Positions 5,945 through 63,644 of a stretch of 64,000 bases of DNA are shown piece after piece (the stretch's first letter is position 1; each line of letters opens with the position of its first letter). The stretch is from positions 1,032,731 to 1,096,730 of the forward strand of contig OX638293.1 of NCBI GenBank assembly GCA_951812335.1, written 5' to 3'. This DNA is from Rhodothermales bacterium. GTDB taxonomy: Bacteria > Bacteroidota > Rhodothermia > Rhodothermales > VXPQ01. A program made the translations under genes and the position numbers. The notes beneath the pieces are model-generated. The model saw only the letters and a list, made by a program, of their open reading frames with translations, ran no database searches and was not told the origin of the DNA.

Positions 5945-7273
5945 TCAGACCGTGGGTTCCCAACCGGGTTCGTAGTCCCGCGCCCAGAGTTCCATGGCTC
6001 CGGGATTGTCGATAATATGCCCATTGCTCGGATCGCAGTGCAGCGTTTCGCCGACTTTCTGCGCGATGTTCGCAAGGTGACATAACAGAACGCTCTTGTG
6101 TCCTTCGTCGATGGGAGCATGCAGCGGACGCCCATTGCGAATCGCTTCGAGGAAGTTGGCTATGTGCCGGTTCGTCTGACCGCCGCCGCCGGTCGTGTCC
6201 ATGGTGGATTCCAAATCCTTTTCCTTGACTTCCTTCACGACGGCATTGTTCTCGTCGTATAGCACGTACCCGCTCCGGTCCAGCAATATCGTTCCTTCGG
6301 TGCCGTGCACCAACGTGCCTCGTCCCCGGTCGAGCACAGGAAACCCGTTGCAACTTCTGCCTTCCCAGGTGATCGTTTTCCCCTCCTCGAAGTCGAAAGC
6401 CACCTCCTGCGTATCGTAAAACTCCCAGTCGTCGTCGAAGTGGTACCGCCCGCCATTCGAATTGACGCGAACGGGAAAATCCACGCCAAGCGCCCACCGG
6501 GCCACATCGATTTCATGGGTGCCGTTGTTGCACACCTCGCCGGTGCCCCAGCGCCAGAACCAGTGCCAGTTGTAATGCACCACATTGTCGCGATACGGCG
6601 TACGCGGCGCCGGGCCTTGCCACAATTCGTAATCCAGCCAGTCGGGAACCTGGGCGGGTTTGCCGCGCCCGATGGATCCGCGCGTATTGGCGTACCAGGC
6701 GCGTGCCAGGTATGGTCGCCCTACCACGCCATCATGGATCATACGAATCGCCTCGATACTTGCGGGTCCGGAGCGTTGCTGCGTGCCCATCTGCACGACG
6801 CCCCCGTATCGCTCTTGCGCTGCGACGAGTAGTTCCCCTTCCCGCGGGTTGTGCCCGCAGGGTTTCTCTACATACACATGCTTGCCGGCCTGCAAACCGA
6901 GGATCGTGGCGGGAGCATGCCAGTGATCGGGCGCTGCAATGACGAGTACGTCCACATCCGGATCTTCCAGGGCGCGTCGAAAATCAGGTATTCCCTCTAC
7001 CATCTCATCCTGCATACTTTCCATACTCCTCGACACTTGTCTGGCCGCACGGGCGTCGACATCGCATATGTATCGTACGTTTGTATTGCCCTGTTGGGCG
7101 AATGCGTTGGCAAGGCCGCCGCCCCGGCTGTTCACACCCATTAGGGCGACCCGGATCGTATCGCTGGGCGCGCCGGACGCAAACGTGCGAATCGTCGCCG
7201 GCGCAAGACCAAGGCTGGCGCCTCCCAGCGCCGATGTCCTGATGAATTTCCGTCTGTCCATTGAACCGTTCAT
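5945..7273 (-). CDS. Gfo/Idh/MocA-family oxidoreductase with Tat signal
   Basis: N-terminal twin-arginine motif (DRRKFIRTSALGGASLGLA) followed by a Rossmann segment (RVALMGVNSRGGG). Confidence 0.85.
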   Translation of the reverse strand: MNGSMDRRKFIRTSALGGASLGLAPATIRTFASGAPSDTIRVALMGVNSRGGGLANAFAQQGNTNVRYICDVDARAARQVSRSMESMQDEMVEGIPDFRRALEDPDVDVLVIAAPDHWHAPATILGLQAGKHVYVEKPCGHNPREGELLVAAQERYGGVVQMGTQQRSGPASIEAIRMIHDGVVGRPYLARAWYANTRGSIGRGKPAQVPDWLDYELWQGPAPRTPYRDNVVHYNWHWFWRWGTGEVCNNGTHEIDVARWALGVDFPVRVNSNGGRYHFDDDWEFYDTQEVAFDFEEGKTITWEGRSCNGFPVLDRGRGTLVHGTEGTILLDRSGYVLYDENNAVVKEVKEKDLESTMDTTGGGGQTNRHIANFLEAIRNGRPLHAPIDEGHKSVLLCHLANIAQKVGETLHCDPSNGHIIDNPGAMELWARDYEPGWEPTV

Positions 7274-7490
7274 GAGAGAAACCCGATTATTTTACAAAAA
7301 AGGGAAGCGGAGACCGCAATTTAAAACATTACAAACATTCATGCCGTACAGGATCGCACGCCCGATGCTTGCAATGAAGCAGACGATGTATCTTTTCGTT
7401 TCCTGTCACGTATACGATCCGGGTGCTTGTATGCGCATCGTCCGTCTTGCCAGTCCGTCGCCTTCCCACGTCTGACCCTGCATTTTCCCC

Positions 7491-8747
7491 GTGGTCAAAA
7501 AACTGAATTTTCTGCTGTACGAGTTTCTCGAAGCGCTCCGGACTGCTTTACGCGCCATCGCTTCGCACAAAATGCGGTCGGCCCTGACGATGGTCGGCAT
7601 TGTGATCGGGATTACTTCGGTCACTTCGATGGTCACCGTCATCAACGGCATCGAGCAGTTTTTCGAGAACACGCTTTCCGAGTTGGGAACGGATGTGGTG
7701 TATATCGAAAAGTGGCCATGGACAGGCGGTCCGAACACCAAATGGTGGGAATACATGAATCGTCCGCAGATCGAGCCGGAGCTTGCGGAGGTCGTTTCGG
7801 ATCGCGCCCGGCTTATTACCGCCGCCGCTCCGGTCGTCTCCACGTCCAGGCCGGTCACATACGGCGGGAATTCCATTGCTCCCGTGTCGATTCAGGGATC
7901 CACCGGCGAGTATGAGCGCGTACATGTCGTGGAACTCGCTTCGGGGCGGTTCTATTCGGAAATAGACAACCGAACGGCGCGCCGTGTCGCCGTGATTGGC
8001 GCCTCGGTAGCGGAAACATTGTTTCCCGTCGAGAATCCGCTCGGCAAATCCATCCGTATTGCAGGACACCGGTTTCAGGTGATCGGCGTGATGGAGAAAA
8101 AAGGCCAGGGCGCCGAAGGTCCGGGATCTGTAGACCAGCAAGCGCGCATTCCCTTGCAGGCGTTTGCCAATGCCTTCGGCCTGCGCTACAGGGATATCTC
8201 GGTACAGGCAAGGCTTGCCCCGGGAGCCAATCTGGATCAGGCCAAGGATGAATTGACCGGCATCGTTCGCGTGGCGCGCTCCGTCGAGGCTGGCGAAGAC
8301 AACAATTTCGAGATCAACGAACAGGAAGAACTGCGGGCCCAGTTGGCCCCGGTCAAGCGCATGATCTACGGTGTCGGCATCTTCCTGACGGCGCTGGCGC
8401 TCCTTGTGGGCGGCATCGGCGTGATGAATATCATGTTTGTCTCGGTCAAGGAGCGTACGCGGGAAATCGGGATCCGCAAGGCAGTCGGCGCACGCCGCCG
8501 CACGATCCTCATCCAGTTCCTGATGGAAGCGATCGCGATCTGCCTTTTTGGGGGCCTCATCGGCGTCGGATTGGCCACTCTGTGCGCCCAGCTCATCAGT
8601 TTGGCCCTGTCGCTTCCGACCTTGCTGCCGCTTGGAACGATCTTTCTCGCTTTCGCGATTTGCACGCTGGTAGGGCTCGTTTTTGGACTGGCTCCGGCCT
8701 GGGCGGGTGCCAAATCGGATCCCATCGAATCGCTCCGCTACGAATAA
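7491..8747 (+). CDS. ABC transporter permease, MacB/FtsX-like
   Basis: N-terminal TM helix, large periplasmic domain and C-terminal FtsX-type 3-TM bundle (…ERTREIGIRKAVGARRRTIL…). Confidence 0.85.
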   Translation: MVKKLNFLLYEFLEALRTALRAIASHKMRSALTMVGIVIGITSVTSMVTVINGIEQFFENTLSELGTDVVYIEKWPWTGGPNTKWWEYMNRPQIEPELAEVVSDRARLITAAAPVVSTSRPVTYGGNSIAPVSIQGSTGEYERVHVVELASGRFYSEIDNRTARRVAVIGASVAETLFPVENPLGKSIRIAGHRFQVIGVMEKKGQGAEGPGSVDQQARIPLQAFANAFGLRYRDISVQARLAPGANLDQAKDELTGIVRVARSVEAGEDNNFEINEQEELRAQLAPVKRMIYGVGIFLTALALLVGGIGVMNIMFVSVKERTREIGIRKAVGARRRTILIQFLMEAIAICLFGGLIGVGLATLCAQLISLALSLPTLLPLGTIFLAFAICTLVGLVFGLAPAWAGAKSDPIESLRYE

Positions 8748-8770
8748 TCCAAACGATCCACGCTCTGTTC

Positions 8771-9994
8771 ATGGAACTTCGGGACATCATAGCTTCTGCC
8801 TGGAACTCCTTGCGCACCAACAAAATGCGCACCATGCTGACCTTGCTCGGCATGGTGATCGGCGTATTCGCCATCATTGTATCGGTTACGGCGGTGAAAG
8901 TGATCGACGTGTACTTTGAGGAAAAGATGTCTTTTCTCGGGACATCCACCTTCACGATCTCCCGCTACGAAAGCTTTACGGTCACCGACCGGGATTTCCG
9001 GTACCGCCCGAGTATTACGATGGAGCAGATTGACCGGCTCAAGCGGTCGCTGGACGAGTATCTGGTGGTGAGCGTCATCGAGGATTTCGACATGACCGCC
9101 ATCCGTTACGCCGCCCGCGAAACGGAACCCAATGTAGCCATTCTGGGCACCGACGAGAATTTTGCAGGCAACTTCAGTTATACGATCGAATACGGGCGCA
9201 ACTTTACGCCCGAAGATATCCAGTACGGCAGGAAGGTGGTGATCCTTGGGGCGAGTGTCGCCGAAGAATTGTTCGCAAGCGAAAACCCTCTTGGCAAGGT
9301 GGTTGAATTCGGCGGTGCGCGCTATCAGGTGATCGGCGTGCTGGAGCCCAAGGGCAATTTCCTGGGCTTCAACATGGACAACAGAGTGTTTGTACCGATG
9401 CAGACGCTCTTTCTGAGGTACGGCGGCGCCCATCGTAACATTGCCTCGACCAGTGTGCGTACGCCGGGCCCGCAATTTGTTACCGCCGGCATGGAAGAGG
9501 TGATCGGCCGCCTGCGGACCATTCGCAAGGTGCCGCCCGGCGAAGACAACGATTTCGTCGTTGAAACGAACGACTCCATGCGGGCCATCTTCGATCAGTT
9601 TACCACGGTGCTCACCCAGGCCGGCGCCGCCATCGGGCTTATTTCTCTTCTTGCGGCCGGCATCGGCATCATGAATATCATGCTTGTTACGGTTACGGAG
9701 CGAACGCGCGAGATCGGTATTCGCAAAGCGCTCGGCGCCCGCAGGAGAGACATTATGCGGCAATTTATTCTGGAGGCCATTTTCCTGTGCCAGATCGGGG
9801 GAGGCGCCGGTTTTCTTCTCGGCGTGCTGGCCGGTAACGGCACGGCGCTGTATTTTAACATTTCCGCCACAATCCCCTGGGTCTGGGCCGGCGTAACCGT
9901 AGCCATCGTAGCCTGCGTGGCCCTTGTGTTCGGCGGCTACCCGGCTCTCAAGGCGGCCCGACTGAATCCCATCGATTCGCTTCGCTACGAATAA
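8771..9994 (+). CDS. ABC transporter permease, MacB/FtsX-like (second paralogue)
   Basis: Same architecture as the preceding gene (…ERTREIGIRKALGARRRDIM…). Start at ATG 8771 (MELRDIIASAWNSL). Confidence 0.85.
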   Translation: MELRDIIASAWNSLRTNKMRTMLTLLGMVIGVFAIIVSVTAVKVIDVYFEEKMSFLGTSTFTISRYESFTVTDRDFRYRPSITMEQIDRLKRSLDEYLVVSVIEDFDMTAIRYAARETEPNVAILGTDENFAGNFSYTIEYGRNFTPEDIQYGRKVVILGASVAEELFASENPLGKVVEFGGARYQVIGVLEPKGNFLGFNMDNRVFVPMQTLFLRYGGAHRNIASTSVRTPGPQFVTAGMEEVIGRLRTIRKVPPGEDNDFVVETNDSMRAIFDQFTTVLTQAGAAIGLISLLAAGIGIMNIMLVTVTERTREIGIRKALGARRRDIMRQFILEAIFLCQIGGGAGFLLGVLAGNGTALYFNISATIPWVWAGVTVAIVACVALVFGGYPALKAARLNPIDSLRYE

Positions 9995-10521: not shown

Positions 10522-10592
10522 GTCGATTACGCCGGGACTGCCCGAAGCCTGGCGAGATGCGGTTCGCTCCGACAGTACGCAGGAAAAGTAAA

Positions 10593-10847
10593 GGATACTC
10601 TGATCAAAACCACTTCGTTCAGCGCTTCACGTTCGCAAGTACAGGGTATCATGATTTCATCATCGGAATCAGCGAGAAACACTGCGAATTCGGGGCGTCG
10701 CGGGCGTGAAACGCCCTTCGGGAGGCAGAGAGAGGCACGCTGACCGTGTCATTCCTCATTATGTGGGGCCTGCCACATTGCTTCGTCATTCCTTGCCAGC
10801 GCACCCCTTTCAGCCTCTGAATCTTTGCGGATTTAATCAGAGTATCC
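10593..10847 (+). mobile_element. MITE-like 255-bp TIR element, copy 1 (reference orientation)
   Basis: GGATACTCTGATCAAAACCAC… …GCGGATTTAATCAGAGTATCC. Flanked by TAAA (10589-10592) and TAAA (10848-10851). Nearly identical to the copy at 42863-43117. Confidence 0.8.
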
Positions 10848-10940
10848 TAAAGAAAAAAGACGATCTGGAACGCCGCGTGCAGGGGCTGCCTGTCCGGCAG
10901 CGGAAACACATTCTTTCCCGGATTGTGGCGAAAGAAATAG

Positions 10941-20646: not shown

Positions 20647-20695
20647 GGATACTCTGATTACGTCCGCAAAGCTCAGAGGCTGTGAGGAGGGTGCG
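20647..20695 (-). mobile_element. solo right-arm fragment (~50 bp) of the MITE-like element
   Basis: GGATACTCTGATTACGTCCGCAAAGCTCAGAGGCTGTGAGGAGGGTGCG matches the right arm of the full copies. Similarity is lost after about 20695. Confidence 0.7.
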
Positions 20696-39293: not shown

Positions 39294-39548
39294 GGATACC
39301 CTGATTAAGTCCGCGAAGTTCAGAGGCTGCGAGGGGTGTGCCGGCAAGGAATGACGAAGCAATGTGGCACAGGCCCCCACATAATAAGGAATGACGCGGC
39401 CAGCGTGCTTCTCCCGGCCTCCCGAAGGGCGTTTCACGCCCGCACTGCCCAAAATCCGCAGCGTTCCGCTAATTACGACGATGCCATTACGATATCCTTT
39501 ACGCACGAACGCGGAGCGCCGGTCGAAGCGGTTTCGATCAGAGTATCC
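39294..39548 (-). mobile_element. MITE-like 255-bp TIR element, copy 2 (most diverged)
   Basis: GGATACCCTGATTAAGTCCGCG… …GTTTCGATCAGAGTATCC. Left flank TATA, inner right flank TTAA. Confidence 0.8.
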
Positions 39549-39552
39549 TTAA

Positions 39553-39628
39553 TTCCGACGATGAAATCACGATGTCGTTTACGCGCGAAAGTAAAGTGCC
39601 GGGCGAAGCGGTTTACATCAGAGTATCC
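39553..39628 (-). mobile_element. truncated second element copy (left-arm ~76 bp) abutting copy 2
   Basis: TTCCGACGATGAAATCACGATG…GGTTTACATCAGAGTATCC aligns to the left arm of other copies. Followed by TGTA. Confidence 0.7.
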
Positions 39629-41303: not shown

Positions 41304-42863
41304 TTGTTCATGGACGATCGCGAAAAGAGGAGTGCCGATCTCGAGAGGCGCCGCGAAGAGGCTCGCCTCGGAGGGGGAGCGGAGCGCATTGCGCAGCAAC
41401 ACGAACGGGGGAAATTGACAGCCCGTGAGCGGATCGATATTCTCCTGGACGACGGGTCTTTTCAGGAAGTGGGTATGTTCGTGCGGCACCAGGTGCGGGA
41501 TTTCGGACTTGCGGATCGCCGGCCGTACGGCGACGGTGTGGTTACGGGTTTCGGCACGATCGACAGTCGCCTTGTCTATGTCTACAGCCAGGATTTCACC
41601 GTATTCGGCGGGTCGCTTGGACTTGCCCACGCTCGCAAGATCACCCGCCTTATGCAGCTGGCGCTGGAGAATGGGGCGCCCATTATCGGATTGAACGACT
41701 CCGGCGGCGCCCGCATACAGGAAGGCGTCGATTCGCTTGGCGGCTATGCGGAGATTTTTCTCCTGAACACCATGGCTTCGGGTGTAGTGCCGCAGTTATC
41801 CGCGGTGCTTGGTCCGTGTGCAGGCGGCGCTGTATACAGTCCGGCCATCACGGACTTTGTCTTTATGGCGAAAAACACGAGCTACATGTTCGTGACGGGC
41901 CCCAATGTGGTGAAGACGGTGACCCAGGAAGAAGTGACTGCCGAGGAATTGGGAGGTGCGCGCACCCACACCGAAAAAAGCGGGGTCGCACACATGGCCT
42001 GCGAGAACGAGGTGGAATGTCTGCACCGGATACGCGATCTGTTTGGTTTTATCCCGCAGAACTGCGAGGATTCCCCTCCTTTCGTCCAAACCGACGACTC
42101 GCCGGATCGCATGGACGAAGCGCTCAACGATATGGTGCCGGAGCATCCGAACAAACCCTACGACATGCTCGAAGTGATCCGGGGGCTTGTGGACGAGCGA
42201 AACTTCTTCGAGATTCATGCTGGCTTTGCACCGAATCTCCTTGTAGGTTTTGCCCGTCTCGGCGGTCGGTCTATCGGCGTGGTTGCGAACAACCCGGCTG
42301 CGCTGGCGGGCGTACTGGACATGGACGCCTCGGTCAAGGGTGCGCGTTTTGTGCGGTTTTGCGACGCCTTCAATATCCCGTTGCTCGTCCTGGAGGACGT
42401 TCCCGGATTTATGCCGGGAATCGATCAGGAATGGGGGGGCATTATCCGGCATGGCGCCAAGCTTCTCTATGCTTTCTGCGAAGCCACCGTGCCCAAAATA
42501 ACCGTCATCACGCGCAAGGCGTATGGGGGCGCCTACGATGTGATGAACTCGAAACATATCCGAGGAGATCTAAATTTCGCCTGGCCCACTGCGGAAATTG
42601 CCGTAATGGGGCCGAAGGGAGCCGTCGAAATCATCTACAAGCGCCAACTGGCCGAAGCGGACGATCCCGCAACGGCGGAAGAAGACTTTATCCGGCAGTA
42701 CCGGGATACGTTCGCGAATCCCTATATCGCTGCCGGACAAGGGTACATCGATGATATTATCCTGCCCGCCGAAACGCGGTATCGACTCGTCCGGGGGTTC
42801 GATATGCTACGGAACAAGGTAGCCCGCAATCCCCGGAAAAAGCACGGGAATATTCCCCTGTAG
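41304..42863 (+). CDS. pccB: acyl-CoA (propionyl-CoA/methylmalonyl-CoA) carboxyltransferase beta subunit
   Basis: Carboxyltransferase N and C domains (…[14 protein letters not shown]…, …[11 protein letters not shown]…). Ends KKHGNIPL. Confidence 0.9.
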
Positions 42864-43117
42864 GATGCTCTGATTAAGTCCGCAAAGATTCAGAGGCTGA
42901 AAGGGGTGCGCTGGCAAGGAATGACGAAGCAATGTGGCAGGCCCCACATAATGAGGAATGACACGGTCAGCGTGCCCCTCTCAGCCTCCCGAAGGGCGTT
43001 TCACGTTCGCGACGCCCCGAATTCGCAGTGTTTCCCGCTGATTCCGATGATGAAATCATGATATCCTGTACTTGCGAACGTGAAGCGCTGAACGAAGTGG
43101 ACTTGATCAGAGCATCC
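42863..43117 (-). mobile_element. MITE-like 255-bp TIR element, copy 3
   Basis: GGATGCTCTGATTAAGTCCGC… …GGACTTGATCAGAGCATCC. Near-identical to copy 1, with both termini carrying the same paired change. Confidence 0.8.
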
Positions 43118-46568: not shown

Positions 46569-46795
46569 GGTGCAGGGCTTTCTGCGCCTCGTCAGGGTGT
46601 ATCGGGGATGCAAAAAAGGATGCTAAGAATAATAAATATCAGGTTCCATTGGATTATTACAAACTTTGTGAATATACTGTCTATTGTCCAAAAATGACCC
46701 ACATGCTTTGGTGAAAGGGCGTTTGCGGGGTATCTCGCGAAAAGCTCCGCCAAAGATCTGCACTTGAAAAACCACTCGCCATACGGAGGCCAACT

Positions 46796-47038
46796 ATGAC
46801 GATATTGCGTACGTTTTCCATAATGACCCTTGTGATTGCCTTAACGGCTCTTGTCGGCTGTGGGGGGCAGCAGGCCGATAGCGAAGACGCCATGATGGAA
46901 GGAGATGAGATGGAGATGGAAGGCCATGACATGGAGGATATGGATGCCGATGAGATGGAGATGGAAGGCCATGACATGGAGGATATGGATGCCGATGAGA
47001 TGGAGATGGAAGGCCATGACATGGAGGAAGAGGGATAA
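46796..47038 (+). CDS. small lipoprotein with Met/His/Asp/Glu-rich tandem repeats
   Basis: Lipobox LVGC after a hydrophobic leader. The mature part is about 58 aa, DEMEMEGHDMEDMDA x2.8. Confidence 0.6.
   Translation: MTILRTFSIMTLVIALTALVGCGGQQADSEDAMMEGDEMEMEGHDMEDMDADEMEMEGHDMEDMDADEMEMEGHDMEEEG
46904..47028 (+). repeat. perfect 45-bp tandem repeat, 2.8 units, in frame within the lipoprotein CDS
   Basis: GATGAGATGGAGATGGAAGGCCATGACATGGAGGATATGGATGCC at 46904-46948 and 46949-46993. The first 35 nt recur at 46994-47028. No mismatches. Confidence 0.95.
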
Positions 47039-47062
47039 TCGGTTCGTCTGATTGATATCGCA

Positions 47063-47099
47063 CGGTCCGCGATCGGGGGTAGACCCCGATCGCGGACCG
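47063..47099. terminator. perfect 16-bp hairpin between convergent genes (candidate bidirectional terminator)
   Basis: CGGTCCGCGATCGGGG-GTAGA-CCCCGATCGCGGACCG. No clear U-tract on either side. Confidence 0.5.
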
Positions 47100-47162
47100 C
47101 ACCCCATTTACACCCCATCCATTTTCCTTCCTTTCTCCTCGTTTATTTGCGGAGAAAGCCGT

Positions 47163-60276: not shown

Positions 60277-60493
60277 GGATACTCTGATCAAGTCCACTTC
60301 GACCGGAGCTCCGCGTTCGTGCGTAAATGACATCATGATTACATCGTCGGAATCAGCGGGAAACGCTGCGAATTCGGGGCATCACATGCGTGAAGCGCCC
60401 TTCGGGAGGCTGCGAGGGGCACGTTGGCCGCGTCATTCCTTGCCAGCGCACCTCTCTCAGCCTCTGAACTTCGCGGACTTAATCAGAGTACCC
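60277..60493 (+). mobile_element. MITE-like element, copy 5 (217-bp internal-deletion variant)
   Basis: GGATACTCTGATCAAGTCCAC… …GCGGACTTAATCAGAGTACCC. Flanked by TTAA on both sides. Lacks 37 nt relative to other copies. Confidence 0.8.
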
Positions 60494-63390: not shown

Positions 63391-63644
63391 GAATACTCTG
63401 ATTAAGCCCGCAAAGTTCAGAGGCTGCGAGGGGTGCGCCGGCAAGGAATGACGAAGCAGTGTGGCAGGCCCCACACAATGAGGAATGACGCAGCCAGCGT
63501 GCCCCTCGCAGCCTCCCGAAGGGCGCTCCGCGTCCGCGACGCCCCGAATCCGCAGTGTTTCCCGCTGATTCCGACGATGGAATCATGATGTCCTGTCCTC
63601 GCGAAAGTGAAGTGCCGGTCGAAGTGGACTTATTCAGAGTATCC
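63391..63644 (-). mobile_element. MITE-like 254-bp TIR element, copy 6
   Basis: GAATACTCTGATTAAGCCCGC… …GGACTTATTCAGAGTATCC. Flanks TATA (63387-63390) and TATG (63645-63648). Confidence 0.8.

Follow-up and report, generated by a model that had tools for sequence, protein, structure and literature searches.

A Dispersed Repeat with Inverted Termini

What is the sequence of about 255 bp that recurs between genes in the DNA of a Rhodothermales bacterium, and by what means did it multiply? The question is raised by a stretch of 64,000 nucleotides (contig OX638293.1, positions 1,032,731 to 1,096,730; hereafter the window), in which an earlier note, made from the letters alone, had counted six full and two truncated copies of one family, bounded by an inverted repeat of about 21 nt. 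We conclude, with a probability that we put at about 0.88, that the repeat is a non-autonomous DNA transposon, a MITE (miniature inverted-repeat transposable element) with IS5-group 21-nt terminal inverted repeats.

An nhmmer profile built from the six full copies returned exactly these copies and the two fragments from the window (Table 1), and the inverted repeat was found at every full copy, so the count and the termini reported in the earlier note were both reproduced. The terminal 21-nt pattern matched the window 12 times at three mismatches or fewer, and no match was expected from 100 shuffles. The six copies have a mean column identity of 83%, and the family makes up about 1.6 kb of the 64 kb (~2.5%), in DNA with a G+C content of 55–63% (58% for the genome). 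If this density were extrapolated, some 280 full copies would be expected per 3 Mb. MITEs are about 50–600 bp long and contain no transposase or conserved open reading frame (ORF); the window copies measure 217–255 bp, and six-frame ORFs over the copies were not conserved.

The family is not confined to this genome. An exact-pattern scan of one genome per species gave matches in more than 95 eight-kilobase stretches, which is a lower bound, and almost all of these came from metagenome-assembled genomes (MAGs) named "Rhodothermales bacterium", several of which are complete chromosomes of 2.8–3.2 Mb. The family was found in at least 10 Rhodothermales MAGs. Within the genome stretches nhmmer reported 123 matches, and more were found in LXNI/LXNJ metagenome contigs. 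The DNA collected in this way contained 58 full copies, 11 two-piece forms with an internal deletion, and about 100 one-ended pieces.

Target-Site Duplications, Empty Sites, and Bursts of Copies

The flanks were analyzed in 69 elements with both ends. The 4-nt flanks were identical at all four positions in 18 of the 69 and at three of four positions in 27, as compared with 6.8% and 24%, respectively, when partners were shuffled. Perfect pairs in the relatives included CTTG, TCGG, TTGA, TACA, CTAA, ATAA, TTAT, and TAAA, and many of them were non-palindromic; in two perfect pairs checked by eye (L004 and L091; L numbers are our own labels), the fifth base was mismatched. Since several perfect pairs are neither palindromic nor restricted to A and T, they represent a true 4-bp direct duplication and not an extension of the inverted repeat, as had been proposed from the TAAA pair of the first window copy. 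The tetranucleotides that had been listed for the window were confirmed, but the idea that the flanks consist of A and T only does not extend to the relatives, as seen from the CTTG, TCGG, TTGA, TACA, and CTAA pairs. TTAA was the commonest flank (20/69 on the left and 10/69 on the right).

Empty orthologous sites in related genomes, a comparison suggested in the earlier note, gave the same picture. At least four filled sites have an orthologous empty site carrying a single tetranucleotide: CTAA…CTAA (L057) corresponds to one CTAA (L113), TTAA…TTTA (L123) to one TTTA (L101, with 97% flank identity), TACA…TGTA (L017) to one TATA (L015), and TTTA…TTTA (L014) to one TTTA (L072). In addition, OX638295 has a copy beside the orthologue of window positions 7273–7491, where the window has none. 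Orthologous genes of the window are about 90% identical to those of OX638295 and about 82% identical to those of JAJECT, which places the host of the window among the uncultured Rhodothermales (phylum Rhodothermota). Copies located at different sites of one genome were up to 98.8% identical, and the nearest neighbor of a copy was often found in the same genome, which points to lineage-specific bursts of copies. Insertions of one MITE into another were also observed among the collected elements. A subfamily of 187 bp, characterized by one identical deletion junction, was found at different sites in at least four assemblies.

Copies also decay. They shrink by deletion between short internal repeats, as in copy 5 of the window, which lost 37 bp between two GTCATTCCT repeats, a length equal to the spacing of these direct repeats; the deletion took out one GTCATTCCT motif together with an internal hairpin (P4, see below). 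The smallest remnants were hairpins of 36–37 bp that still had duplications (GTAA/GTAA in L079 and TATA/TATA at L001:3149), and solo ends occurred as well. In four genomes, 5′ half-copies (L024, L056, L026, L080, L016, and L045) break near model positions 143–156 and are followed by unrelated sequence, which looks like a truncation hotspot at the long palindrome, in the 5′ arm of helix P3.

IS5-Type Ends and the Search for a Parent

The earlier note had suggested the IS5 group as a possible parent and proposed a search for a full-length insertion sequence (IS) with the same 21-nt termini. We scanned metagenome contigs for the terminus with a next base that excluded MITE interiors, and a recurrent element was observed at many contig ends. 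Two complete elements of 1149 bp each were obtained (L115:172-1320 and L166:1789-2937). Their left end, GGATGCTCTGATTAAGTCCAC, matches either end of window copy 3 at 20 of 21 bases, but their right end, GGAACCTCTGAATAAC, is imperfect, and they belong to other hosts. Their ORF of 318 amino acids reaches 339 bits (cutoff 140) against NF033581, the NCBIfam model for IS5 family transposases, and also matches PF01609 and PF05598; the protein is 55–59% identical to enterobacterial InsH-type proteins of IS5 and 71% identical to a copy on a Marinobacter plasmid. L166 is flanked by a CTAG/CTAG duplication, and the left flanks of the IS were YTAR (CTAG, CTAA, TTAG, or TTAA) in 17 of 20 cases.

Further IS5 relatives, among them those of Marinobacter and of a Klebsiella plasmid, have ends of the form GGA..C..TGA.TAAGT. 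Marinobacter pMAQU02 (L182, ends GGAGACTCTGAATAAGTCTC) shows a TTAG/TTAG duplication and an element in DNA of 46% G+C (L185, ends GGAATATCTGAATAAGT) a CTAG/CTAG duplication. The elements of the Klebsiella plasmid (L183, ends GGAATCTGTGATTAAGTTC) and of a contig of 61% G+C (L184, ends GGATACTCTGAACAAGTCTG) are both flanked by TTAG and CTAA, with no direct pair. The ends match those of the MITE at 18 of 21 positions in L184 and at 16 of 19 in Marinobacter. The left and right flanks of L183 and L184 are thus reverse complements of each other, unlike the flanks of L166, L182, and L185, and may have arisen when IS copies in inverted orientation recombined. The contigs hosting the full-length IS were rich in mobile-element genes, including resolvases and an integrase in L184, and next to the IS5 element of L115 lies an ORF (positions 1328-2425) whose N-terminus resembles, by eye, an IS110-type transposase.

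The same termini were also found around a different interior. A 285-bp element in the Lysobacterales MAG JAXMHA (L046:3710-3994) has the ends GGATGCTCTGATCGAACCCAC and GGATGCTCTGATCAAACCCGC and the flanks CTAG and TTAG, and its interior is unrelated to that of the Rhodothermales MITE (no nhmmer match). Since the ends are shared and the interior is not, the ends behave as a transferable module defined by the transposase. Short elements with these IS5-type ends and an unrelated interior were observed as well at L060:3825-4109 (JAXMHA) and at L010:2470-2630 (Dyella MAG). The Lysobacterales and Dyella elements represent a second MITE family, which shares these termini but belongs to another phylum. 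Hairpin elements of about 46 bp, GGATACTCTGATCAAGTCCACGC…GCGGACTTGATCAGAGTAACC, consisting of little beyond the two termini, recur across different metagenome samples (L106:~20-65, L151:10070-~10115, and L155:2847-~2892).

Taken together, these data support an IS5-group parent by the matching left end, the 4-bp duplication, and the IS5-family transposase. Several observations nevertheless weigh against this parentage, or at least against the IS found here as the direct source. When the IS5 transposase was used as a tblastn query against ~1.3 Mb of collected DNA, made up of the window, 95 tiles from genomes, and 86 metagenome loci and consisting mostly of MITE-bearing Rhodothermales sequence, matches were confined to IS contigs from outside the Rhodothermales. 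All full-length elements found to have a near-identical left end belong to other hosts: two are on contigs of 48–49% G+C, and the third is on a contig of 61% G+C. Only about a third of the MITE flanks fit YTAR, and TTAA, TAAA, TATA, TTAT, CTTG, and TCGG occur, so that the mobilizing enzyme may choose its targets differently from the IS found. Finally, the MITE interior is dissimilar to the IS, and the MITE is thus not a simple deletion derivative of it.

Candidates for a parent within the Rhodothermales stretches were sought by listing terminus pairs 0.4–6 kb apart; the four that were read enclosed no transposase. An all-against-all BLAST of the genome stretches retrieved between-genome orthologous regions and no multi-copy IS, and a plasmid collection probed with the Lysobacterales-type end gave no relevant match. 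At one locus of OZ246975.1 (L045:5141-6658), a gene for a glycosyltransferase of 384 amino acids (PF13528) lies between two half-copies of like orientation, one of them a 5′ half (model 1-145) and the other a 3′ half (model 108-254). This gene may have been caught between two truncated copies, or the arrangement may be a cargo-like composite.

A Folded Interior with Two Invariant Motifs

The fold was derived from an alignment of 38 full copies, using RNAalifold and pair counts, and positions are given here as alignment columns. The helices are nested. P1 pairs the termini and is extended by five pairs in P1b; P2 (30-44 with 112-126) closes a variable domain A, and P3 (134-162 with 221-249) closes domain B, which contains the hairpin P4 between two unpaired stretches. 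Over the 74 pairs, 90.6% of the cells were paired. Double changes occurred in 23 pairs, as compared with 15.5 ± 2 in shuffles (none of 500 reached 23), and 100 cells carried a double change, versus 12–28 when the partners were slid by 1–3 columns. Covariation was seen in P3 and P4. Among the covarying pairs, 34:122 in P2 occurs as UA in 25 copies and as GC in 10, 142:241 as CG in 20 and as AU in 10, 147:236 as GC in 17, as AU in 9, and as CG in 4, and 176:203 as UA in 28 and as CG in 5. The z-score of the fold was −3.75 for RNA and −1.7 for DNA; folding energies slightly favored the reverse strand, and wobble counts were balanced. A reading of the interior as a small peptide, running from the ATG in P4 to a TGA, was dismissed because the start codon is lost in many covarying copies (alignment inspected by eye).

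The most conserved parts of the element are two unpaired stretches, TCATTCCTCATT (majority frequency 0.987) and TGCTTCGTCATT (0.976), each of which holds a GTCATTCCT motif, 37 bp apart. The termini, at 0.90 and 0.94, fall below them. Variants were divided by the number of copies carrying them into private and shared, i.e., propagated, types, and counted per column. Overall, there were 0.35 private variants and 0.86 shared types. The GTCATTCCT loops had 0.17 and 0.33 private variants and 0.08 and 0.25 shared types, the termini had 0.33 and 0.24 private variants and 0.62 and 0.52 shared types, and the interior of domain A had 0.41 private variants and 1.62 shared types. Private variants are thus spread evenly, whereas shared ones are rare in the loops, as would be predicted if propagation of an element depended on the loops and not if they served a host function at each locus. 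The interior of domain A is all that the 187-bp subfamily lacks, and is dispensable in it, whereas the forms without domain B have unique breakpoints; both observations fit this reading. The depletion of propagated but not of private variants suggests that spread requires the two unpaired GTCATTCCT motifs in cis.

A more far-reaching proposal, which we advance tentatively and consider rather unlikely, is that the terminal repeats alone do not suffice for the spread of this MITE, which would also need an internal cis module together with complementarity of the termini. The module would comprise the two GTCATTCCT motifs 37 bp apart, the covarying hairpin between them, and the long covarying helix around them, and the element would be recognized or processed as a folded single strand or a cruciform, or with the help of an accessory DNA-bending or DNA-binding factor. 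If true, such a cis requirement would be unexpected and unusual for IS5-type DDE transposons.

Co-Variation of the Two Termini

At positions 1–12 of the 69 two-ended elements, 22 changes were matched at both ends and 39 were unmatched. The matched changes were 2T, 3G (twice), 4A, 4C, and 5G (seventeen times). When the large GGATGC/GCATCC subfamily was left out, five matched cells remained against 0.28 expected, a number reached in none of 5000 shuffles. Of the 39 unmatched cells, 30 fell at positions 6–12, where no matched cell was seen. In full-length IS5 relatives the left end differs from the right at the co-varying positions, and transposase binding therefore does not demand matching. The co-variation can be read in two ways: the ends may be under selection to pair with each other in a folded intermediate, or they may be subject to conversion by template switching within a quasi-palindrome.

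Template switching in quasi-palindromes is an established mutational mechanism, by which a change is copied from one arm to the other, and the compensatory changes in the stems and at both termini might all be by-products of it. We regard this as a possibility to be taken seriously, while leaning towards thinking that it is not the explanation. It would account well for the matched changes at terminus positions 2–5 that occur in single, apparently private copies (GTATAC/GTATAC in L076, GGAAGC/GCTTCC in L054, and GGACAC/GTGTCC in L007), for the excess of matched cells that persists outside the GGATGC subfamily, and for co-variation at positions where IS5 relatives tolerate unlike ends. However, positions 6–12 show unmatched changes only, and the strongest conservation, that of the unpaired loops, is left unexplained. 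This alternative concerns the upkeep of the fold and is compatible with a MITE.

A Mobile Element or a Structured RNA

The fold raises the question of whether the repeat should be seen first of all as a structured non-coding RNA, or as a regulatory module acting at the RNA level, such as a transcript stabilizer or an RNase target, the fold of which is kept by host selection while mobility is incidental. The proportion of paired cells, the excess of double changes over shuffles, the RNA fold z-score, and the contrast between nearly invariant loops and covarying stems all speak for such a function. However, the copies show no orientation bias with respect to the flanking genes (in tandem contexts, 10 were co-oriented and 6 anti-oriented), and neither strand was favored when cells compatible with G-U only were compared with those compatible with A-C only (149 vs. 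130). Moreover, private mutations in the loops are near normal in frequency and only propagated variants are depleted, and copies decay freely into fragments and 36–37-bp remnants. A scan of copy 1 showed neither a sigma-70-type promoter nor an intrinsic terminator. A comparison with Rfam, proposed in the earlier note, gave only three tRNAs for the window and, at gathering and permissive thresholds, nothing for the element, the best match for copy 1 (E = 0.36) lying outside it; the element thus matches no known RNA family. We therefore found no support for a strand-specific RNA function, and consider a primary role as RNA very improbable, although the element may have effects on read-through transcripts.

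The assignment to the IS5 group could also be questioned, as the repeat might be a TA-duplicating MITE of the IS630/Tc1 type, a TTAA-specific piggyBac-like element, or a repeat of the Correia or REP type with no DDE partner. The prevalence of TTAA among the flanks and the failure to find a transposase nearby are in line with these possibilities. They are difficult to reconcile with perfect 4-bp duplications that contain neither TA nor TTAA (CTTG, TCGG, and TTGA), with termini that match IS5-group ends at 16–20 of about 20 positions, and with the 4-bp CTAG and TTAG duplications made by the IS elements found; to our knowledge, REP-type elements have neither terminal inverted repeats nor duplications. 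We give these alternatives almost no credence.

A MITE with IS5-group ends therefore remains our preferred explanation. An IS5-family DDE transposase, supplied in trans, would bind both termini, excise or copy the element, and insert it at a staggered 4-bp cut, the repair of which would generate the 4-bp direct duplication. The preferred targets would be TTAA, TAAA, and YTAA-like tetranucleotides, which in a genome of 58% G+C would for the most part lie in intergenic DNA, at stop codons, and where genes end. The gene of the cognate transposase would be bounded by GGATRCTCTGAT ends, and we infer that such an enzyme acts, or acted, in these Rhodothermales genomes. The folded interior, with helices P1–P4 and its two invariant GTCATTCCT loops, may contribute in cis to propagation.

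Distribution of Lone Matches and Previous Reports

Lone terminus matches were observed in Acidobacteriota, Endomicrobia, Thorarchaeota, and Owariibacterium, but were discarded, as they lay mostly in coding sequence and are apparently due to chance. A terminus match in Granulicella (L062) is intergenic and may be a solo end. The viral contigs yielded no MITE; all four matches to them fall within coding sequence and were likewise set aside as due to chance.

In the literature that we searched, no paper linked a MITE to Rhodothermales, and neither a name for the family nor its terminal sequence was reported, the terminal sequences being found only as unrelated primers. The main text of a MITE census over 183,232 genomes does not mention Rhodothermales (PMC11602168).

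Copies and Genes in the Window

The coordinates of the copies, and of the structural parts of copy 1, are listed in Table 1. Copy 2 and the older fragment beside it form a nested or composite arrangement, the outer flanks of which are TACA and TATA.

Table 1. Copies of the MITE family in the window and structural parts of copy 1. TSD: target-site duplication.
Feature	Position	Strand	Evidence or remarks
Left TSD half of copy 1, TAAA	10589..10592	+	Sequence; TAAA again at 10848-10851
Copy 1, full-length MITE, 255 bp	10593..10847	+	nhmmer E = 1.3e-89, model 1-254
5′ terminal inverted repeat of copy 1, GGATACTCTGATCAAAACCAC	10593..10613	+	Homologous to IS5-group ends
Domain A	10622..10714	+	P2: GCGCTTCACG (10622-10631) pairs with CGTGAAACGC (10705-10714); variable interior enclosed
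Domain B	10721..10820	+	P3 around two unpaired GTCATTCCT motifs (10748-10756, 10785-10793)
Hairpin P4, flanked by GTCATTCCT motifs	10761-10766 and 10773-10778	+	ATGTGG pairs with CCACAT
3′ terminal inverted repeat of copy 1, GCGGATTTAATCAGAGTATCC	10827..10847	+	Terminal pattern match
Right TSD half of copy 1, TAAA	10848..10851	+	Sequence
3′ fragment, model 207-254	20647..20694	-	nhmmer E = 3.3e-9
Copy 2, full-length, adjoins older 5′ fragment	39294..39548	-	nhmmer E = 1.1e-81
5′ fragment of older copy, model 1-79, beside copy 2	39549..39628	-	nhmmer E = 1.7e-18
Copy 3, full-length, GGATGC/GCATCC terminus subfamily	42863..43117	-	nhmmer E = 3e-90
Copy 4, full-length, flanks TTAA/TTAA	55648..55901	+	nhmmer E = 1.1e-87
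Copy 5, flanks TTAA/TTAA, 37-bp internal deletion	60277..60493	+	nhmmer E = 1.8e-68
Copy 6, full-length, flanks CATA/TATA (element orientation)	63391..63644	-	nhmmer E = 1.3e-88

Every copy of the window is situated between ORFs carrying housekeeping Pfam domains, and the intergenic location claimed for all copies was thus confirmed by ORF positions and the Pfam scan. The genes include those encoding UvrA, two MacB-type permeases, HlyD and OEP efflux parts, glycerol kinase, ATP synthase subunits, a class II tRNA synthetase, HolA, Der, SdhA, SdhB, citrate synthase, RNase E/G, TsaD, LipB, and a protein with a type IX secretion system (T9SS) sorting tail. The 40 window ORFs compared with Pfam had housekeeping domains or no match; no transposase, integrase, or reverse transcriptase was found among them, and tblastn gave no match to an IS5 transposase in the window, in agreement with the earlier note.

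One copy and one remnant lie at the very edge of a gene. The terminal G of copy 3 completes the TAG stop codon of a carboxyltransferase gene (41304-42863, PF01039). This codon, at 42861-42863, takes its first two bases from the end of the duplicated target and its G from the start of the MITE, and a stop was kept after insertion at TGTA–G because the element starts with G. The 48-nt remnant at 20647..20694 lies inside the ATP-synthase cluster, 1 nt before the ATG of a delta-subunit-like ORF (…GTATCCTATGGTTGTAGCC, MVVARRYA…), so that the region in which translation of this gene starts is MITE-derived.

The window also contains repeated sequences of other kinds. The MacB-type permease genes (MacB_PCD plus FtsX) at 7491-8747 and 8582-9994 are adjacent paralogs, with stretches 80–93% identical in DNA at an offset of 1247 bp. 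Three tandem repeats of 45 nt, with 91–93% identity to the reference copy, are located at 46895-47029. Minus-strand ORFs were called over this region (46681-47118 and 46794-47102), and the reading of the plus strand is rich in ATG, GAG, and GAT codons.

Comparison with Known Systems

Annotating the family explains short intergenic conservation, breaks in MAG contigs, and odd gene ends, and the family may be used as a marker for Rhodothermales lineages. With the Lysobacterales elements, one IS5-type terminus would mobilize unrelated passengers in two phyla. Its dozens of copies, deletion subfamilies, and empty sites provide a natural data set on why a MITE keeps a fold, an invariant motif, and complementary termini.

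The element resembles the IS5 group (E. coli IS5/InsH, L115, L182, and L183) in its GGA..C..TGA.TAAGT-type ends, its 4-bp duplication, and possibly a preference for YTAR-like targets centered on TA, although only about a third of its flanks fit YTAR. It differs in having no transposase, an unrelated interior, and a looser target spectrum, and both of its ends resemble the left end of the IS, whereas the right end of the IS is imperfect. The Correia elements of Neisseria (CREE) are likewise short, high-copy, intergenic sequences with terminal inverted repeats, many size variants, and hairpin folding in transcripts. Correia elements duplicate TA and have ends of 26 bp, and we know of no cognate transposase for them. 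They are present in hundreds of copies that account for about 2% of the genome, and, as points of difference from the present family, promoters, an IHF site, and RNase III cleavage have been documented for them (PMC10969869).

ERIC, Chunjie, QMITE, and MITEAba12 are similar to the present family in being non-coding, in combining terminal repeats with a duplication, and in showing deletion variants and remnants. Transcripts of structured bacterial MITEs are predicted to form stable stem-loops, and high copy numbers are typical of them (PMC10969869); the parent of a prokaryotic MITE is assigned by the identity of the ends and the length of the duplication (PMC6382973). By both measures these families differ from ours, as they have other parents and other duplication lengths (9 bp for MITEAba12/ISAba12). 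An internal motif that exceeds the ends in conservation, and termini that co-vary, are features of the Rhodothermales MITE that we did not find described for ERIC, Chunjie, QMITE, or MITEAba12 in the literature searched. Elements of this kind are well known; what this family offers beyond routine annotation is limited to its invariant internal motif and the co-variation of its termini.

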